Positions 5,774 through 32,156 of a stretch of DNA of 32,219 nt are shown in pieces (position 1 is the stretch's first letter; the number at the start of each line of letters is the position of its first letter). Under the pieces are notes generated by a model. That model was not told where the DNA came from. It searched no databases and saw nothing but the letters and a program-made list of their open reading frames with translations. This DNA is from a virus (taxonomy: Duplodnaviria > Caudoviricetes): positions 1 through 32,219 of the IMG/VR virus record IMGVR_UViG_3300037195_001448. The stretch is one strand, 5' to 3'. The position numbers and the translations under genes are program-made.

Positions 5774-5834
5774 CGTTTCATGCTGCAGGGTACCAGCGAC
5801 CCTCACCCCGGCCCTCTCCCAGAGGGAGAGGGGG
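5774..5834 (+). repeat. REP-like element CGTTTCATGCTGCAGGGT..ACCCTCACCCCGGCCCTCTCCCAGAGGGAGAGGG
   Basis: Other copies at 10330-10388 (-), 7265-7300 (-, partial) and 10460-10483 + 11173-11210 (+, split by the cassette). Confidence 0.85.
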
Positions 5835-7237: not shown

Positions 7238-7422
7238 AGGTAGAATCCTTTAAAAAGTTTTTCTGGGTGAGGGTCGCCTGGAACCCTGCAGCATTTAACG
7301 CTAATTATCTTCGGATCTGCGGATGTGCTAGGTCGGGGGAGGGGTGTCAGGTGTCGGGTGTCGGGTGTCTGGCTCGGAAGGGCTGGCGATGGCTCTCGAC
7401 ACTGACACCCGACACCCGACAC

Positions 7423-8538: not shown

Positions 8539-9255
8539 TTACGCTCTCTTTCTTAGTCCTTGATTCCAGATCCGGATGGCCTTTTGGGCGGCTTGCTGGA
8601 TCCGCTGGTTCGGAAATTGCCCCAGGGCTCGCCAGGTCTTGTAGAAGTTCAAACCGGGGTTGCGAAGGGTGACCTTTTTCCTCAGCACAAAGATCGGCAC
8701 TATCTCAGTGCCACGGATGCGGGGCTTATAGAAGACCACCCCGTCACGGATGAAGGATTTTCGCTTATCGAGGTCGCTCCATTCGGCATAGGGCTTTTTG
8801 AACTTCTTACGGGTCTTCCCCCGCATGGTCTGCACGATCGGCCCTGGGATGGGCACTCGGAGGTATCTGGCCTCCTGCGGGTATATTGTCCCACCGAATT
8901 CCTGATATTCCGCCACGTTGCTGCGGGAAAGGATGTTCAGGGACATGTCCAGGGCGTTGGCCTGGGTGAGGGCCAGCCGCTCGACCAGGCCCTTGCGCTC
9001 GTCCGATTGCTTTCCCACCCCTACCCCACGGTTGCCCACGTTCACGTATCCCCGGAATTTCCCGTAAAGGGATTTCCGGAACGGCCGGGCCAGATTCAGA
9101 TCCAGATTGGAAAGCCAGCTTTTGAAAAACTTGCGCTTGATGTGCAGCAGCCCGTCGCCGAACTGGTAGGCGAATTGATTGGGGGCGGTCTGCATGGCGT
9201 GCAGGACCTCCGCCATCTGAATCTTGATTACTGGGCGGAATTGTTTTTTAGCCAT
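8539..9255 (-). CDS. Neck / tail-completion (virion morphogenesis-like) protein (238 aa)
   Basis: Basic protein with AEYQEFGGTI.P...YL.VPI motif; head-tail connector position. Confidence 0.6.
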   Translation of the reverse strand: MAKKQFRPVIKIQMAEVLHAMQTAPNQFAYQFGDGLLHIKRKFFKSWLSNLDLNLARPFRKSLYGKFRGYVNVGNRGVGVGKQSDERKGLVERLALTQANALDMSLNILSRSNVAEYQEFGGTIYPQEARYLRVPIPGPIVQTMRGKTRKKFKKPYAEWSDLDKRKSFIRDGVVFYKPRIRGTEIVPIFVLRKKVTLRNPGLNFYKTWRALGQFPNQRIQQAAQKAIRIWNQGLRKRA

Positions 9256-9321
9256 GGGGGAGGGTGGGTGAGGTCAAAACAACACACTGGTTTTTAGCCA
9301 TTGGGGAGGGTGGGTGTCAGG

Positions 9322-9969
9322 TCAAAACAACACCCCCTGTGCAAGTCTGTTCGCAGCAATCTCACAATACTTTTCCTCGATTTCGATCCCGATTGCCTTA
9401 CGGCCAAGATCCTTTGCAGCGCGAAGAGTTGTTCCTGAGCCCATGAAAGGATCGAGAATTGTTTCGCTTGGCACCTTTTGGATCAAGTAAAGAATCAAAT
9501 CTAATGGCTTCTCACAAAAATGAGACCTACTCTTAGCGCCACGAAATTGTAAAAGTGCCGAATCTCGATTTCCGTTCAATGGCGGATTATTCCTCACTCC
9601 AATACACTCTATATCTCGCTTCCAACATGTAGCCCTATCGCCACCAATCCCGAAATCTTTGCCTTTGTGCCAAACTAAAACGGAGCGCCACTCAATAGGG
9701 ATCGGGTTATAAGGAGAGAAAAACACAACCTGGGGAAAATCTTGTAATTGAATTAAAACTCCCATCGTTACACCCAGTGTCGCATCATTTCTACACGGAA
9801 TTGCACTACGAAACAATTGCCCATGTGATGTGTGATTAATACCGTAGGGCGGATCTGTTAGAACCAAAAAATCAATTTCCAGTTCCAGTAAATCTGGCAC
9901 AATTTCCTGGCAATCCCCATGATAAATCACAATCCCATCGTCTTCGTAGTAGGGCGTCATTCCATCCAT
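9322..9969 (-). CDS. DNA N6-adenine/N4-cytosine methyltransferase, beta class
   Basis: IYHGDC, TDPPY, H..EKP, DPFMGSGTT, GIEIEEKYC motifs; visibly AT-richer than its flanks. Confidence 0.92.
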   Translation of the reverse strand: MDGMTPYYEDDGIVIYHGDCQEIVPDLLELEIDFLVLTDPPYGINHTSHGQLFRSAIPCRNDATLGVTMGVLIQLQDFPQVVFFSPYNPIPIEWRSVLVWHKGKDFGIGGDRATCWKRDIECIGVRNNPPLNGNRDSALLQFRGAKSRSHFCEKPLDLILYLIQKVPSETILDPFMGSGTTLRAAKDLGRKAIGIEIEEKYCEIAANRLAQGVLF

Positions 9970-9983
9970 TCGAATTACTTTCC

Positions 9984-10319
9984 CTACCTCATGACTTTGA
10001 GGTACCATATCCCATCCATCCGGCTCAGGATTTCCATGACGGGCCAGTCTCGCTCCGTATCCCCGCCGTGCTCGGCGAATGTAAACTTGTCTTTAACGAG
10101 CTTGATATCGTCCCGCCCATCGGTGGCGTCATCGGCGATCCATACCACGGCCCATGTCTTCCCCTTGTGCTTCCCTTCCAGGGGCTTGGCCTGCACCTCC
10201 ACTCGTGCCCAGGGGATGGTGACCTCCGCGGCCCCGTCCGGGGTGAATTTTACGTTCTGGCGGACGAAGGGATCGAGGGTGTCCTTCAGGATGATCTCGG
10301 CGTGGTCTGTCATTGCCAT
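9984..10319 (-). CDS. Head-tail adaptor / head closure protein (111 aa)
   Basis: Size, beta-rich composition and position between capsid and neck genes. Confidence 0.55.
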   Translation of the reverse strand: MAMTDHAEIILKDTLDPFVRQNVKFTPDGAAEVTIPWARVEVQAKPLEGKHKGKTWAVVWIADDATDGRDDIKLVKDKFTFAEHGGDTERDWPVMEILSRMDGIWYLKVMR

Positions 10320-10413
10320 AATCTAACCTCCCTCTCCCTCTGGGAGATGGCCGGGGTGAGGGTCGTGGGAACCTTGCAGCATGAAACGTCTATTCTAAAT
10401 CGCCTCTGCGGAT

Positions 10414-10463
10414 GCGTTGGGAGGCGAGGCGTTGGGAGGCGAGGCGTTGGGAGGCGAGGCGTT
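10414..10463. repeat. Tandem 15-mer GCGTTGGGAGGCGAG x3
   Basis: Directly visible. Confidence 0.9.
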
Positions 10464-11169
10464 AAATGCCGCAGGGTTCCCTGTTCTCCTGAAATAAATC
10501 CATCTGCCGCGTCTCGTTCTCGATTCGCTCGCAGGCGGCTTTAAAATAGTCCTCGTCGATCTCCGTGGCAGTCAGATACGCGCCGAAGTAGTGGCAGGCG
10601 ATGGCGATTGATCCGCTTCCCATGTGAGTATCCAAGATTCGGTCGCCGGGGCTGGCGTAGTTCGCCAGAATCCAGTCGTAGAGCTTCACTGGCTTCTGTG
10701 TGGGGTGGATGCGATTTCCTTGGTCTGGCCTTTTTGTGTAATCCTTCAAAATCGCGTCAAAAGAAGTCCACGCTAATTCCCCATCAGAATAAGTCCCGCC
10801 CATCTGCTTCTGCCAGTAAAGCCAACATCTTGACGGCGGCAGCAGGTCGGCAAAATAGTTCCCCCCCCAAATCACTTGATTCTCAGAAACCCTTTGAAGT
10901 TCAATGAAGTATGATTCATCGGGTCTGTCCGCATCCCATTCCTTGGGAATATACAAATCCGCTTTTTTCTTCCCGTTGCCCCGCGTTTCACCCGCTCCTT
11001 TCGCCATATTTATGCCGTAGGGCGGGTCCACAATAGCTAGGTTCCAATAATTGTCGGGAGCGTCCCGCATCAATTCCATGCAATCGCCCAGCCTCAAATC
11101 AAGAAAGGGAGAACAAGGTGCAGCAGGTAATCCCTGCCTCGCTTCGCTCGTTGTGATACCTGTGCTCAT
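10462..11169 (-). CDS. DNA N6-adenine/N4-cytosine methyltransferase, beta class, carried on an attC cassette
   Basis: GDCME, VDPPY, IWGGNYF, HPTQKP, DTHMGSGS motifs; N-terminus encoded by the attC bottom strand. Confidence 0.92.
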   Translation of the reverse strand: MSTGITTSEARQGLPAAPCSPFLDLRLGDCMELMRDAPDNYWNLAIVDPPYGINMAKGAGETRGNGKKKADLYIPKEWDADRPDESYFIELQRVSENQVIWGGNYFADLLPPSRCWLYWQKQMGGTYSDGELAWTSFDAILKDYTKRPDQGNRIHPTQKPVKLYDWILANYASPGDRILDTHMGSGSIAIACHYFGAYLTATEIDEDYFKAACERIENETRQMDLFQENREPCGI

Positions 11170-11172
11170 GCG
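10484..11172 (+). mobile_element. Integron-type gene cassette (G|TTCTCC ... attC)
   Basis: Core GTTCTCC at 10483-10489 is the exact reverse complement of GGAGAAC at 11108-11114; removing 10484-11172 restores an intact REP-like element. Confidence 0.75.
11108..11172 (+). other. attC recombination site
   Basis: GGAGAAC, 5-nt spacer, arm GCA(G)CAGGTA(A)TC pairing with GATACCTGTGC (two extrahelical bases), 6-nt spacer, G. Confidence 0.75.
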
Positions 11173-11218
11173 CTACCCTCACCCCTGCCCCTCTCCCAGA
11201 GGGAGAGGGGATTTGGGA

Positions 11219-11252
11219 AAAAACGGCGGCGACGGTATCACCGTCGCCGCCG
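11219..11252 (-). terminator. Rho-independent terminator after the capsid gene
   Basis: 13-bp stem CGGCGGCGACGGT/ACCGTCGCCGCCG followed by TTTTT on the minus strand. Confidence 0.75.
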
Positions 11253-11293
11253 CCCGGAAAACAACGTCCCAGACGGAACGTGGTTTATTTCTC

Positions 11294-12313
11294 TTATGCC
11301 GTGTCGATGTCCACGAGGACGGCCTTTCGGAAGTCGCCGAACTGGACCACCCGGTCGGACTCGATGCTGACCCGGATGCCACCGGTATTGAAGTGGTGAT
11401 CGCTGTCCGTGCCCAGGACCTTGACGGCGAAGGACTGGATCTCGCTGAGGGTCTCCGGCCGCTCGCTCTCGTTTGCCTGGGGCGGCTGAGCGCCACGGAT
11501 GAAAGCGGGCAGTCCCTGGGCTGTGTCGTCGTTACGCACGACCACCAGCTTGTCCGTCCATGTCAGAGCGACGTTGATGCTCATGCTCATAGAGAGCTGC
11601 TGGCCGGCGATGCCGCTGTTCAGGGCGACAAGGGTATTGTCCCTGGCAGCACCTCCGGAGGTGGCGAGAAGGGCCGCGCTGAATGCCTTCAGGGCGATAT
11701 CCCAATACTCGATTGGAAGCATCACATGCACGCTTTTCATGCCACGGTTCACCTTGCGGCCCTGGCTGTCTTTCTGCTGGTAGAGCTGCTTTATGCCGGC
11801 GAGGATGGCCTTTTCCATCTCGTCCGGAGTCGGGGCAGTGGCGTCCACCGCATCGTAGGTGATGGAGTTGGAGAAATTGCCCGATGCGCCGAATGAGTGG
11901 GTCGTCGAGAAATAGGTCTGCGCATCGAAACTATTGGTGCTCGTGCCGAGCTCCATCTTGGTGGTCAGCAGATCTTCCCAGTGGCGGACCGGCTCATCGG
12001 CGAAGTCGGAGATGAGGGCTTCGTTGACCCGGCCCTTGCCGAGTCTCCACTGCTTTCGGGCGAAATCCAGGGTCCCCTCATAGGGCGAAACCTCGAATGA
12101 GGTCTCGATCTCGCCAAGGGTTACCGGCTGTTTCTCGCCGTCCCATGCCCGCATCTTCGGGGTTGCGGCTGGCCAGGCGATCTCTTCGAGATCCTGGTTG
12201 CTACCCCAAATGGGGCCGGTGAAGGGCAGAATGAAGGATGATAGCTCCGCATGCTCGATTTTCTCGATCATGCGCCCGATGACGTATCGGTCGGTGAGTC
12301 GTTCGAATGGCAT
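11294..12313 (-). CDS. Major capsid protein, Mu gpT-like (339 aa)
   Basis: P.MR.W.GEK, YEGTL, FDAQTYFSTTH and D..GR.VN motifs; follows protease and decoration genes. Confidence 0.8.
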   Translation of the reverse strand: MPFERLTDRYVIGRMIEKIEHAELSSFILPFTGPIWGSNQDLEEIAWPAATPKMRAWDGEKQPVTLGEIETSFEVSPYEGTLDFARKQWRLGKGRVNEALISDFADEPVRHWEDLLTTKMELGTSTNSFDAQTYFSTTHSFGASGNFSNSITYDAVDATAPTPDEMEKAILAGIKQLYQQKDSQGRKVNRGMKSVHVMLPIEYWDIALKAFSAALLATSGGAARDNTLVALNSGIAGQQLSMSMSINVALTWTDKLVVVRNDDTAQGLPAFIRGAQPPQANESERPETLSEIQSFAVKVLGTDSDHHFNTGGIRVSIESDRVVQFGDFRKAVLVDIDTA

Positions 12314-12452
12314 CTGATTGCCTCCGGTTCATGGTTAAGCGGATGAAAAATTCGTCCGTGTCCCGTGTCCGGAGACGTTGTTTTCCGGTCTCACCCGCAG
12401 GCGGTGGCCTGCGGGTGAGGGTTTCAGGTGTCTGGTGTCGGGTGTCTGTCTG

Positions 12453-25083: not shown

Positions 25084-25774
25084 TGCTTGGGGTCAGGTGG
25101 ACGTAAGGAGCGCCGGTAAGGGCGCTTTTCTCTTTCCCGCTCGGCTTGAATTCCCAGATGTTCCGCTCGCCGGTGGCCGGGACGTAGACCGGGTTCTCCC
25201 TTACAGCGCTGAAGTGCCAGGCGAATCCGCTCGGCGAAGGAAGGTAGTGCAGCTCCTTCTTGCCGAATTTCGTCTCGTTGCAGCGGCTGGTTCTGTCCAG
25301 CCAGCCCACTCCGAGGATCTGCCCCCTCGGCAGCTCCTCGCCGTCCCGCTCCCATCTGTTCTCAGAATTCAGGCTCAGCCCGTATCGGGCGAAGTCGGCC
25401 TGCACCTGCTCGTCCGCCGCCAGGGCGACACTCTCCTGGCAGGTGTATCGGCTGGCGTGCAGCCCCATGGTGCCCCGGTAGGTCTTCTCGAACCATTTGG
25501 TAATGAAGTGTTTTGTAGCGTGCCAGACCAGCAGGCTGGCCCAGGGCTGCGGGATGCTGATGCACTTCAACGGCCGGGCCAGGATCTGCTCATCGACGAC
25601 CAGCCAGGTGCCCTCGCAATCGATTTCGCAGCGGTTCATGTGCAGGAGATCCCAGCGAGGCGGATCGTAGGGCGAGTAGCCGGAATACTTGCGCATCTCG
25701 GCCTGGGAGATGTGATCGTTGTCACCGCGGGGCTTAGTCCGGAGCTTTGGATTTCGTGGGTCTCGGCGGGGCAT
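25058..25774 (-). CDS. ASCH-domain protein
   Basis: SI.QPWASL, YRG...LHAS, LPRGQILG, FAW, G...IW motifs. Confidence 0.8.
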   Translation of the reverse strand: MPRRDPRNPKLRTKPRGDNDHISQAEMRKYSGYSPYDPPRWDLLHMNRCEIDCEGTWLVVDEQILARPLKCISIPQPWASLLVWHATKHFITKWFEKTYRGTMGLHASRYTCQESVALAADEQVQADFARYGLSLNSENRWERDGEELPRGQILGVGWLDRTSRCNETKFGKKELHYLPSPSGFAWHFSAVRENPVYVPATGERNIWEFKPSGKEKSALTGAPYVHLTPSNEPAPATR

Positions 25775-25829
25775 GGTTTGTTCAGGTGTCGGGTGTCGGG
25801 TGTCGGGTGTCGGGTGTCGGGTGTCGGGG

Positions 25830-26417
25830 TCAGAGGAGGAGGAGGAGTTGGCCGGGGATGTCTTCTGTATCGGCGGAGACGTTGCGGGATTCGAGCTCGC
25901 TGCGGATGATGCTCTTCTCGTGTGGGAGATTTCTCATTTTGCTGAGGAAGTAGACCAGGTCCTCGTTGGAGCGCTCACGAATGACTGAGGCGAGGTCATC
26001 GCCTTTGTCTTTGGAGTCGGTACCGTCCGACCATCTCAAGGGGAACATGGGAACGTCAGGCGGCTTGAAGTTGTCCCGGCACAATTGGATCTCTGCGTGG
26101 TAGGGCTTGGCCGCCGTGCGGATTAGCATGAACAGGGCGGCCTCATCGTGCGAGACATCGCCATATACCCAGGCACGAAGATGGTGGCCTGATTTGACGT
26201 GCAGGCGCTCTCCGCTCGATACCAGGAATGAGGGCTTGAATGGGAGCGGCTGGGTCACGATCCGGATCGGCCTCTCTCCCCAGCGGCCCTCCCAGGTGAT
26301 GCGATCTGCCGGAAACGTGTTCGCACCCCCGCCGACCTCCCGATGGTCTACCCGCGTGAAGTATCTAAAAAATTCCCGCTCAGCAGCGGTGTCAGGCTCA
26401 TATTTGTATGCCATCAC
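25830..26417 (-). CDS. Hypothetical protein (195 aa)
   Basis: GGAGG RBS; coupled to the upstream gene. Confidence 0.65.
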   Translation of the reverse strand: MMAYKYEPDTAAEREFFRYFTRVDHREVGGGANTFPADRITWEGRWGERPIRIVTQPLPFKPSFLVSSGERLHVKSGHHLRAWVYGDVSHDEAALFMLIRTAAKPYHAEIQLCRDNFKPPDVPMFPLRWSDGTDSKDKGDDLASVIRERSNEDLVYFLSKMRNLPHEKSIIRSELESRNVSADTEDIPGQLLLLL

Positions 26418-26599
26418 TGCACCTCCTTCGCTCTCTTCCCGCCGGTCGGGAGGAGTTTTTTGTTGATTTCATACGTGCATTTCGGGCAACGGTGATTGCC
26501 GAGGGACTGGCTCCGAAACTGGCCGTTGCAGCGGTTGCAGCTCCGCATCGTCCTCTGGCTGTTGCGCCGTATCTGTTCGGTCCGGTCGTCGTCGTTCAT
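26414..26599 (-). CDS. Small zinc-finger protein (CNRC...CPKC)
   Basis: GGAGG RBS, ATGA coupling. Confidence 0.6.
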   Translation of the reverse strand: MNDDDRTEQIRRNSQRTMRSCNRCNGQFRSQSLGNHRCPKCTYEINKKLLPTGGKRAKEVQ

Positions 26600-27483
26600 G
26601 TCAGGATCCTCCATGCTGTCGCCGCCACAATTGGAACTTGTCCATTTCCAAGGGCTCGCAGTCTGTCCAACCGAGAGGCCACCTCATTAGCCACTCGACC
26701 CACGTCGGGTTCAACTTCCCACCATCCACCATGTCGTTGAGCTGGCAGCCGTAACCGTTGGGGGTCATCTTCTTCTGCTTGTCTGTGCCCTTGTGTCCCG
26801 TCTTCCAGTCCCTTGCGGTCGGAGTCGGCCACAGTCTGACCATGTCTGCTAACGTTGTTGTAACAGGTTTCCCCGTTCGTCTGTCGTGAGGCTTCTGTCC
26901 CGCCTGCAATGGGCCGCCCCTGCTGTTCACAATGTCGGTCGGGTCGGCTGTGTTCGGTGTGTTCTTGTTTGCTGTTGGCGTCGGCAGCAACGATCCACAA
27001 TCGCTTTCGGAGATGGGGCGCTCCCAGTTCGGCTGCCGAAAGCACTCGCCATCGTGCATCGAACCCGCTTTCGGCCAGGTCCCGGTATATCGTTCGTGCG
27101 TATTCGTGAGCAAGGAGAGCTGGCACGTTCTCCAGCAATGCGAATTCGGGTCTAACGATGCGAAGGGCATCGATTGTTGCTGGCCACATGTTCCGCTCGT
27201 CTGCCTCGCCGAGCCCTTTGCCGGCGGTGCTGAATGGCTGGCAGGGGAATCCTGCGGTAATGACATCAACCATTCCCTGATACTGGGGAGCGACTCGCTG
27301 GTTAAACTCTCGGATGTCCATATTCCAGATGGGGAATTCATCCAGGTGCCCTTCGGTCTGCCGCTGCGCTAAAACCTGGCAGCAATAGGAATCGATCTCG
27401 ACAGCGCCAACGCAGCGCCATCCCAACAGGATTGAGGCCAGCAATCCGCCCCCCGCTCCAGTAAAAAGACTCAGCTCTCGCAA
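26596..27483 (-). CDS. dcm: C5-cytosine DNA methyltransferase (alpha-type polypeptide)
   Basis: Motif I LFTGAGG, IV GFPCQPFS, VI ENV, VIII H.RKR, X LGNGQVP. Confidence 0.93.
   Translation of the reverse strand: MRELSLFTGAGGGLLASILLGWRCVGAVEIDSYCCQVLAQRQTEGHLDEFPIWNMDIREFNQRVAPQYQGMVDVITAGFPCQPFSTAGKGLGEADERNMWPATIDALRIVRPEFALLENVPALLAHEYARTIYRDLAESGFDARWRVLSAAELGAPHLRKRLWIVAADANSKQEHTEHSRPDRHCEQQGRPIAGGTEASRQTNGETCYNNVSRHGQTVADSDRKGLEDGTQGHRQAEEDDPQRLRLPAQRHGGWWEVEPDVGRVANEVASRLDRLRALGNGQVPIVAATAWRILT
26601..27341 (-). CDS. Nested alternative-frame ORF, putative beta subunit of the C5 MTase
   Basis: 246 codons open inside dcm; ends with motif-IX-like LNPTWVEWLMRWPLGWTD. Confidence 0.65.
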   Translation of the reverse strand: MNSPSGIWTSESLTSESLPSIREWLMSLPQDSPASHSAPPAKGSARQTSGTCGQQQSMPFASLDPNSHCWRTCQLSLLTNTHERYTGTWPKAGSMHDGECFRQPNWERPISESDCGSLLPTPTANKNTPNTADPTDIVNSRGGPLQAGQKPHDRRTGKPVTTTLADMVRLWPTPTARDWKTGHKGTDKQKKMTPNGYGCQLNDMVDGGKLNPTWVEWLMRWPLGWTDCEPLEMDKFQLWRRQHGGS

Positions 27484-27528
27484 TGGTTTTCTCCGGGTAA
27501 AAGGCGTGGCGGGCGGGTGACTGCGGGA

Positions 27529-31426: not shown

Positions 31427-31551
31427 CGCTTCGCGCAGTAGCGCGCGAAGTTTCGCGCAGTAGAGCGCGAAGATGCCATTTTTTACGCGCAGTAGAGCGC
31501 GAACGATCGCGCTCTACTGCGCGAACGCTTCGCGCGCTACTGCGCGAAGCG
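31427..31551. repeat. Five copies of the hairpin unit CGCGCAGTAG(A/C)GCGCGA arranged as an inverted repeat
   Basis: Three forward and two reverse copies; the outer 24 bp are perfectly inverted. Confidence 0.85.
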
Positions 31552-31597: not shown

Positions 31598-31888
31598 GTC
31601 TGGCCTAGCAGTTGGCCGGGGCGGTCCGCCGATATGGTGCGGCGGGATCTCGAAGCAGCGCAGATCCCCCAGCTCGACGAATTCGATCGGCCCTGGCTCT
31701 TCCACGAGCTCCGACATCAGTTTGCAACCAGGCTGGCCGGGGCGGGGATTCATCCTCAGATTGCGCAGCAACTACTCGATCACTCCTCGGTCGATCTGAC
31801 GATGAATGTCTACACTCACACCGGCCTGGCTGAGCGAGCCCTCGCCGTCAATACGATGCCCTCGTTCGCTAGACCTGACCTTCGGTGA
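31598..31888 (+). pseudogene. int: Tyrosine integrase C-terminal remnant
   Basis: FHELRH, LLDHSS, LTMNVYTH motifs; in-frame stop at 31577-31579; no N-terminal or box I region. Confidence 0.85.
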
Positions 31889-32156
31889 GGGATTTGGTGA
31901 GGGATTGAAGGCTCCTTACCCCGACAAAGGCCGACAAAAGCCGACTCGCAATCCCCAGACACGGATGCGCACAAACTAAAAGAGACCCGCCAAGGATGCA
32001 GTATTTTACACTCTCAGAGGGTCTCCGTTAATGGGCGGGGGCAGAATCGAACTGCCGACACACGGATTTTCAGTCCGGATGCTACCTTTCATAAGTTGTT
32101 TTCCTGCATATTTTTGGTGGTCTGGCTTGCGGGGGTGGTGAGGGATTCGGTGAGGG
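31884..32156. other. attP-like site: tRNA-Phe core with arm-type repeats
   Basis: GGTGAGGGATT at 31884, 31896 and 32137, GGTGAGGG at 32149; 10-bp-period CCGAC repeats at 31921-31945. Confidence 0.75.
32032..32077 (-). tRNA. 3' half of tRNA-Phe(GAA), att core (not a complete tRNA)
   Basis: CGGACTGAAAATCCGTGTGTCGGCAGTTCGATTCTGCCCCCGCCCA: anticodon arm, T-arm and acceptor 3' strand; 5' acceptor strand and D arm absent. Confidence 0.85.

Follow-up and report, generated by a model that had tools for sequence, protein, structure and literature searches.

The cassette gene and its phage setting

The stretch of DNA analysed here (the window) is the whole of a linear virus record of 32,219 bases, judged about 45% complete by CheckV, and its sequence is present in marine metagenome runs, with no RNA run among those listed for it. 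The minus strand carries the structural genes of the phage, namely those for the terminase, a lambda-type portal, an S49 protease, the major head protein and the tail. Within this late operon, the major head protein gene (11294..12313, minus strand) is the upstream neighbour of a 689-bp gene cassette (10484..11172, top strand plus), which runs from a TTCTCC core to the final G of a single attC site and carries a DNA methyltransferase gene. Two terminator-like sites (11227..11281, minus strand) lie between the two, a number near chance level (2 against 1.2 +/- 1.0 in shuffles); because they separate the capsid gene from the cassette, expression of the methyltransferase may need read-through. 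Apart from the protein of the window itself, the sole capsid homologue found comes from a Phycisphaerae MAG and is 30% identical, which gives a weak pointer to Planctomycetota as the host group.

The cassette gene (10462..11169, minus strand) encodes an N6/N4 DNA methyltransferase of 235 residues (PF01555, phrog_67), with a PF01555 match of 52.8 bits against a cut-off of 26.7. DPPY precedes the HMGSG SAM-binding motif, which is the beta-class order and marks the enzyme as a beta-class N6/N4 methyltransferase; CcrM, M.MboIIA and M.RsrI are among its nearest solved relatives. Its GC3 is 0.61, compared with 0.73-0.82 in six resident genes.

The ATG of the gene sits in the 6-nt spacer of the attC site, 3 nt inside the crossover, and the gene runs antisense to attC and co-oriented with the phage genes, such that attC encodes the N-terminal 21 residues. 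At the other end no stop is encoded by the cassette, and the last six codons and the stop TAA are supplied by the target DNA. The antisense orientation, the start inside attC, the borrowed last codons and stop, and the co-orientation with phage transcription had been described in an earlier note on this DNA and are seen in the open reading frame at 10462-11169. On the minus strand of the target repeat, a GGTGAGG motif lies 7 nt upstream of the ATG; it resembles a ribosome-binding site and may serve as one. In a related contig (L096), the preceding gene ends with a TAA 4 nt upstream of this ATG. The proteins of many close homologues finish with QEN and a variable tail, and since this read-through is common to so many of them, an end borrowed from the neighbour is a trait of the family. 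A recent TAG-to-CAG change as the cause of the read-through is excluded by the same family-wide pattern. An internal ATG (residue 31) is unlikely to be the start, as a conserved LDLRLGDC stretch would be lost.

Anatomy of the attC site

The attC site (11108..11172, plus strand) comprises an R'' box GGAGAAC (11108-11114) followed by a 5-nt spacer, an L'' arm (11120-11130) with two unpaired bases, G11123 and A11130, six bases apart, an L' arm (11157-11165) in which 9/9 bases pair, and a 6-nt spacer (11166-11171) ending at G11172. This architecture, with its spacers, extrahelical bases and terminal G, is as the earlier note had set it out. So is the matching core GTTCTCC at 10483-10489, where the left junction G|TTCTCC joins the G of the target to the cassette's R' core and forms a 7/7 complement of R''. 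At the right junction, G|CTACCC (11172..11178), the recombined R' box lacks GTT, the integrated state having G|CT at 11172-11174 instead. A near-identical attC site is found in L096, and a related one in the viral record G004.

A pattern scan found no other site of the attC type on the plus strand of the window; on the minus strand its one match was the hairpin of the target repeat, which is without GTT. We also trained a covariance model on 24 attC sites that have no relation to the locus, 21 of them beside bacterial intI and 3 from phage TJE1. Its top match in the window was 11108-11178 (plus strand), at 16.7 bits with a roughly calibrated E of 0.042, ahead of a runner-up at 12.3 bits; this was the check that the earlier note had proposed for the site. 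That the score is modest is due to the window's R' box, which reads GCT: the near-twin attC of L096, with GTT intact, reached 33.9 bits with our model. In ten other loci the model reported 22 sites at E<=1.

In the circular form of the cassette the cores GGAGAAC and G+TTCTCC are complementary at 7/7 positions, with a predicted R-box pairing of 0.95. The first unpaired base is a top-strand G, as it is in 8/19 sense attC sites beside bacterial intI. The predicted L-box pairing is low in both states, at 0.04 for the integrated site and 0.23 for the circular form, whereas 19 bacterial sense sites average 0.83. The value for the circular form is that of the bottom strand (0.28 for the top), and a competing inner hairpin dominates. 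Overall, the bottom strand of the site is predicted to be no more stable than the top, the canonical stem being a minor fold. A site without GTT that is also predicted to fold poorly implies that the cassette is probably stuck where it is.

Several other assignments were considered. Taking the minus strand as the top strand of attC, which would render the gene sense, is excluded by the asymmetry of spacers and bulges, and also by the same orientation rule calling bacterial arrays sense. A second methyltransferase gene (9322-10008) is not itself a cassette, no attC being found for it by pattern scan or covariance model. Nor is the target repeat an attC site, for it has AAC at one end and no matching GTT.

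The interrupted repeat and its junctions

The cassette divides a repeat of about 61 bp into a 5' part (10460..10483, plus strand), which is the source of the gene's C-terminal codons and stop, and a 3' part (11173..11209, plus strand), which contains a widespread palindromic hairpin. Uninterrupted copies occur in the window at 5774..5834 (plus strand), at 7265..7300 (minus strand, truncated) and at 10325..10388 (minus strand); the last of these, inverted relative to the interrupted copy, is absent from the earlier note. Deletion of 10484-11172 restores the repeat, which matches the copy at 7265-7300 without a gap at 32/36 positions. To align the rejoined target with the copies at 5774-5834 and 10325-10388, one or two 1-nt gaps are needed. 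The colinearity described in the earlier note is thus close in both of its comparisons and gap-free only in that with 7265-7300, its exactness against 5774-5834 being broken by 1-nt gaps.

The description of the target as a REP-like element is borne out by its four copies in the window and by the presence of its hairpin in bacterial genomes: the hairpin part is matched in 3863/5426 E. coli genomes and in 3/101 Verrucomicrobiota genomes, one of which has 32 copies. We take this hairpin to resemble the boxC repeat of E. coli. The crossover falls 3 nt short of this widespread hairpin part, outside the hairpin itself.

The repeat alone fixes the length of the deletion at 689 bp and permits four registers. 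The register is settled at 10483/11173 because relatives share both ends of the cassette to the base. In L096 the same attC (with 2 spacer bases differing) continues up to the base equivalent to G11172 and is followed by TTAGGC, a canonical core, inside an array, and in G004 a related attC body (87.5% identity over 64 nt) is followed by G|ATTGTT. At the other end, unrelated upstream sequence meets the same G|TTCTCCTG in five other flanks (L003, L004/L082, L009, L063 and L081). A search with the cassette-end pattern returned 5 viral stretches and 18 metagenome stretches, the latter consisting of 10 chance matches and 8 true relatives, among which L108 is the window's own locus and so not independent and three repeat or overlap viral records. 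Judged from these alignments, both junctions of the window coincide with the points at which the cassette itself crosses over, and no base has been lost or duplicated.

In the target, the triplet at the crossover reads G|CT, neither GTT nor GAT. Genome insertions by IntI1-3 have a measured consensus of GWT (bioRxiv 10.1101/2022.09.11.507474), while for IntI1 identity is reported to be required at the first base alone, with changes of the second base tolerated (PMC2811028), and GNT is cited as the minimal secondary-site motif (PMC10127599). Hence G|CT is off the GWT consensus and compatible with the looser GNT motif and the IntI1 data. The ancestral base of the target at this position was probably C, as all three uninterrupted copies carry C there (CG before ACCCTCACC).

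Two further features of the region may be recorded. Together with the copy at 10325-10388, the interrupted repeat makes up an inverted pair that flanks a 15-nt triple tandem repeat (10411-10463). In addition, the left arm of the target (10471-10483) is a short palindrome resembling the inner stem of attC (11123-11137); it lies off the crossover, and the resemblance may be due to chance.

Searches for a phage with the empty site gave no example in the collections covered. Queries with the capsid and the terminase retrieved no relatives from viral contigs, and hence no empty-site phage there; a pattern of the uninterrupted repeat matched 0 viral stretches; and contigs from 8/11 metagenome runs contained no joint skipping the cassette, contigs being assemblies that drop rare variants. 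The paralogous copies of the repeat in the window stand in for the empty site.

Reversed cassettes are common among phage relatives

We fetched 182 methyltransferase loci, of which 134 were distinct and motif-bearing. In these 134 loci a strict scan found 29 attC sites, 26 of them on the strand opposite the gene, and every attC site adjacent to the gene was antisense (11/11, in 10 loci); two passes over shuffled controls gave 5 sites in all. An adjacent strict attC site was present in only 10/134 homologue loci, so that most relatives are not detectable as cassettes by the strict scan. When one orientation rule was applied throughout, the sites in viral and metagenome methyltransferase loci were 23 antisense, 3 sense and 7 unclear, and those in bacterial intI loci (54, partly overlapping) were 5 antisense, 19 sense and 7 unclear, in sets chosen by homology that include related contigs. 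The strand call is sound, since the same rule yields mostly sense sites at bacterial intI.

Of ten viral records subjected to an integrase test, two encode IntI (G011, comprising L221-L222, and G012, comprising L223-L225), at 354 bits against the TIGR02249 cut-off of 265. Both belong to one phage, which encodes a DnaB helicase and virion proteins; outside the array they are 99-100% identical to each other, and they contain a complete phage integron with intI at L223:1514-2518. Just upstream of intI the two share an attI-like junction, at which their first methyltransferase cassettes differ. These cassettes borrow their last codons from the attI-like junction, and their genes point toward intI. 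A second reversed array is present in the opposite operon of the same phage.

Among the 80 viral loci that best match the IntI of G011/G012, which were picked by similarity and not by a cut-off and include near-duplicates and perhaps some host flanks, 43 have strict attC sites; of the distinct sites, 50 are antisense, 12 sense and 12 unclear. In 46 of the 50 antisense cases the site is located upstream of intI and has the usual attC polarity. The reversed cassette design is common in uncultured phages, some of which have an IntI of their own. As read from these loci, a reversed gene that starts in attC and borrows its stop is what cassettes of this family normally carry in phage and metagenome contigs. 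Arrays of other phage-like contigs show the ends of the window's cassette too, which answers the proposal of the earlier note that the cassette be sought in integron arrays. At best, the methyltransferases of the IntI-bearing phages are 56-58% identical to the window's protein, and the direct donor array was not found among the IntI-bearing phage loci.

Viral antisense attC sites differ in other respects. Their bottom strand is the more stable in 8/23 cases, compared with 16/19 bacterial sense sites, and they are longer (median 89 against 66 nt). The viral sites lack this folding advantage of the bottom strand, although their junctions place the crossover at the usual R' side.

Further individual cases were encountered. 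A reversed cassette in G004 (L092; 10271-10627, minus strand) is likewise solitary and has an attC body related to that of the window; it lies at G|AT in a tail operon and reads into the target. In L084/L112/L110 the methyltransferase cassette abuts an octamer tandem repeat with its attC truncated, and an internally deleted form of it occurs in L082/L110. A Pseudomonadota MAG contig (L119:8981-11016) has a reversed methyltransferase cassette together with IntI, in the geometry seen in G012.

A probable solitary insertion by an integron integrase

Taken together, our findings favor a reading in which a lone reversed methyltransferase cassette was inserted from its circular form by IntI, at G|CT in the repeat, with the phage pool as donor; we put the probability of this whole reading at roughly 0.72. 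That the insertion was of the IntI type is very probable, and that a phage-type pool of reversed cassettes was the source is likely. The event was most likely a solitary off-site insertion of the SALIN type from that pool. The earlier note had proposed secondary-site insertion by IntI acting in trans, for which both junctions now speak by falling on G|TT crossover points known from relatives, the target being compatible with GNT. Its capture scenario requires amendment, for the reversed layout and its companion features are not quirks of the insertion, and the donor was probably a phage array.

The absence of intI from the window, also stated in that note, is confirmed: no IntI is encoded in the contig, which being about 45% complete could hold intI in its missing part. 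The sole match to a tyrosine recombinase, at 31634-31888, scores 27.7 bits against the TIGR02249 cut-off of 265. Neither this 84-residue remnant nor the integrase of the viral record G001 (44.8 bits) can be taken for IntI.

In the proposed course of events, IntI supplied by the host or by a co-resident phage would first excise the cassette from a phage-type array with its genes toward intI. The folded bottom strand of the cassette would then recombine with the double-stranded target at G|CT. The insertion could be kept, as the gene lies in the direction of late transcription and in intergenic DNA, and as the target would provide a ribosome-binding site and a stop to a cassette that has its ATG 3 nt inside the crossover and no stop of its own. 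The broken GTT and the poorly folding attC would make re-excision rare. Finally, methylation by the enzyme probably protects progeny DNA from host restriction; such an anti-restriction role, suggested by the enzyme class and by the discussion in PMC9892861, we hold to be slightly favored.

The main alternative concerning the donor retains the same chemistry and draws the cassette from a chromosomal integron of the host, the reversed gene being an occasional oddity that selection for co-orientation preserved. A plausible host group often encodes IntI (49/201 Verrucomicrobiota genomes searched), Verrucomicrobiota attC sites have the same unpaired G, and two bacterial MAG contigs (L113 and L119) carry a reversed homologue beside attC, in L119 with IntI. 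However, bacterial intI loci are mostly sense, the cassette DNA found only short partial matches in 4/401 Verrucomicrobiota genomes, every locus with the same cassette ends is viral or a short metagenome contig, and the methyltransferase is of a phage-typical family; L113 and L119 may themselves be prophage pieces. A host donor is accordingly quite unlikely, and since the reversed design is normal in phages, some of them with IntI, the donor was probably the array of another phage. It is also unlikely that the target originally read G|TT and that its crossover-adjacent T later mutated to C, locking the cassette, a variant that changes the target only. A single transition would indeed turn G|CTACCC into a canonical R' box and agree with the measured GWT consensus (bioRxiv 10.1101/2022.09.11.507474), but the C at the matching position in all three uninterrupted copies looks ancestral.

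Two further explanations concern the insertion itself. The repeat might be actively targeted, its hairpin or the short palindrome beside the crossover forming a preferred or structure-guided integration site; the strong hairpin abuts the crossover and the left arm of the target resembles the inner stem of attC. Yet the window has an insertion in only one of its four repeat copies, the other insertions seen, solitary or at an array end (in the tail operon and at an octamer repeat of G004, and after a peptidase gene in G001), lie in unrelated sequence, and the intergenic position with its ready ribosome-binding motif and stop explains survival in any case, which leaves targeting very unlikely. 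The most improbable proposition, to which we give little credence, is that the segment reached this place without any site-specific event, through illegitimate or homologous recombination, or is what remains of a longer array. Phage genomes are mosaic, the integrase is absent and the empty site was not observed. Against this, the junctions equal the crossover points of relatives to the base, and the flanks are halves of one repeat without duplication or loss relative to the copy at 7265-7300.

Relation to known integron systems

Like a SALIN or off-site insertion, the locus has one gene and one attC, no intI or second attC nearby (in a contig about 45% complete) and G|TT crossover junctions at a non-att site. 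It differs in that the cassette lies in a phage late region where SALINs are chromosomal, in that the target is G|CT and not GWT, and in that the gene is reversed, starts in attC and lacks its own stop. Off-site insertion has previously rested on laboratory demonstration and on inference from lone chromosomal attC sites; here a natural event in a phage can be read to the base.

Phage attC clusters (CALINs) and integrons with methyltransferase cargo have been described, with an anti-restriction function proposed and with sites that are IntI1 substrates (Qi et al. 2023, PMC9892861). The window shares with the CALINs reported there a phage-borne attC and a methyltransferase cargo; those clusters have at least two attC sites, in contrast to its single site. 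Phage TJE1 has a 50%-identical methyltransferase between two attC sites, in an array that is sense by our pattern scan. The words 'antisense', 'reverse', 'opposite' and 'SALIN' do not occur in the text of PMC9892861. We found no description of reversed phage cassettes in the literature searched, which comprised titles and opening abstracts, most subscription papers lying outside it. Thus phage attC sites with methyltransferases and off-site insertion are both known, and the reversed layout was found in no paper searched.

With the classical cassettes of class 1 and sedentary chromosomal integrons, the site shares the order R''-5-L''...L'-6-R', two unpaired bases six apart and a crossover after G, and the G011/G012 integron has the usual polarity of intI, attI and attC. 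Classical cassette genes, however, end at R'' and read away from intI, whereas the window's gene begins at attC and the genes of the phage integrons point toward intI inside a phage operon. A complete integron is also wanting here, intI and attI being absent beside the window's cassette and present in G011/G012. As an orphan beta-class phage methyltransferase (PF01555, phrog_67), the enzyme is typical in its motif order, its intact catalytic motifs and the lack of a restriction partner beside it, and atypical in taking its N-terminal 21 residues from attC and its C-terminal 6 from the target.

It is tempting to speculate that phages run an integron class of their own, in which a phage IntI keeps stop-less cassettes whose reversed genes start inside attC within a few bases of the crossover and which also spread off-site to unrelated phages without IntI, and we regard the chances of this as evenly balanced. 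If true, each reversed cassette would wire itself into whatever operon receives it, phages would have in integron recombination a means of exchanging DNA-modification genes with one another, and the odd N-terminal peptides of many phage proteins would be explained as attC sequence. The present locus would then illustrate cleanly how, in nature, a gene is delivered from one phage lineage to another. The reconstituted attC, the G|CT target, and the phage IntI with its attI provide substrates on which these ideas can be tested.

Other features of the window

The remaining observations concern the rest of the record. The tyrosine-integrase match at 31634-31888 (plus strand) is a C-terminal remnant of 84 residues of a phage-type enzyme, just before which direct and inverted repeats cluster (31430-31525). 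After it, at about 32009-32076 (minus strand), the sequence resembles by eye the 3' part of a tRNA gene and is possibly a prophage end; ARAGORN found no whole tRNA in the window, and an Rfam search gave no match. Two other methyltransferase genes are present. The second N6/N4 gene (9322-10008, minus strand), which is without attC, is low in GC (0.44; GC3 0.39), and a tandem duplication of about 45 nt (9250-9330) lies at its end. A C5 methyltransferase gene (26596-27483, minus strand) has PHROG matches split between the overlapping frames 26596-27483 and 26601-27341, suggesting a frameshift, and a perfect 48-nt direct repeat occurs near it, at 27485 and 27798. Finally, heptamer tandem repeats are found in about 17 intergenic places of the window (for example 12412-12452 and 25770-25831), mostly in one orientation.
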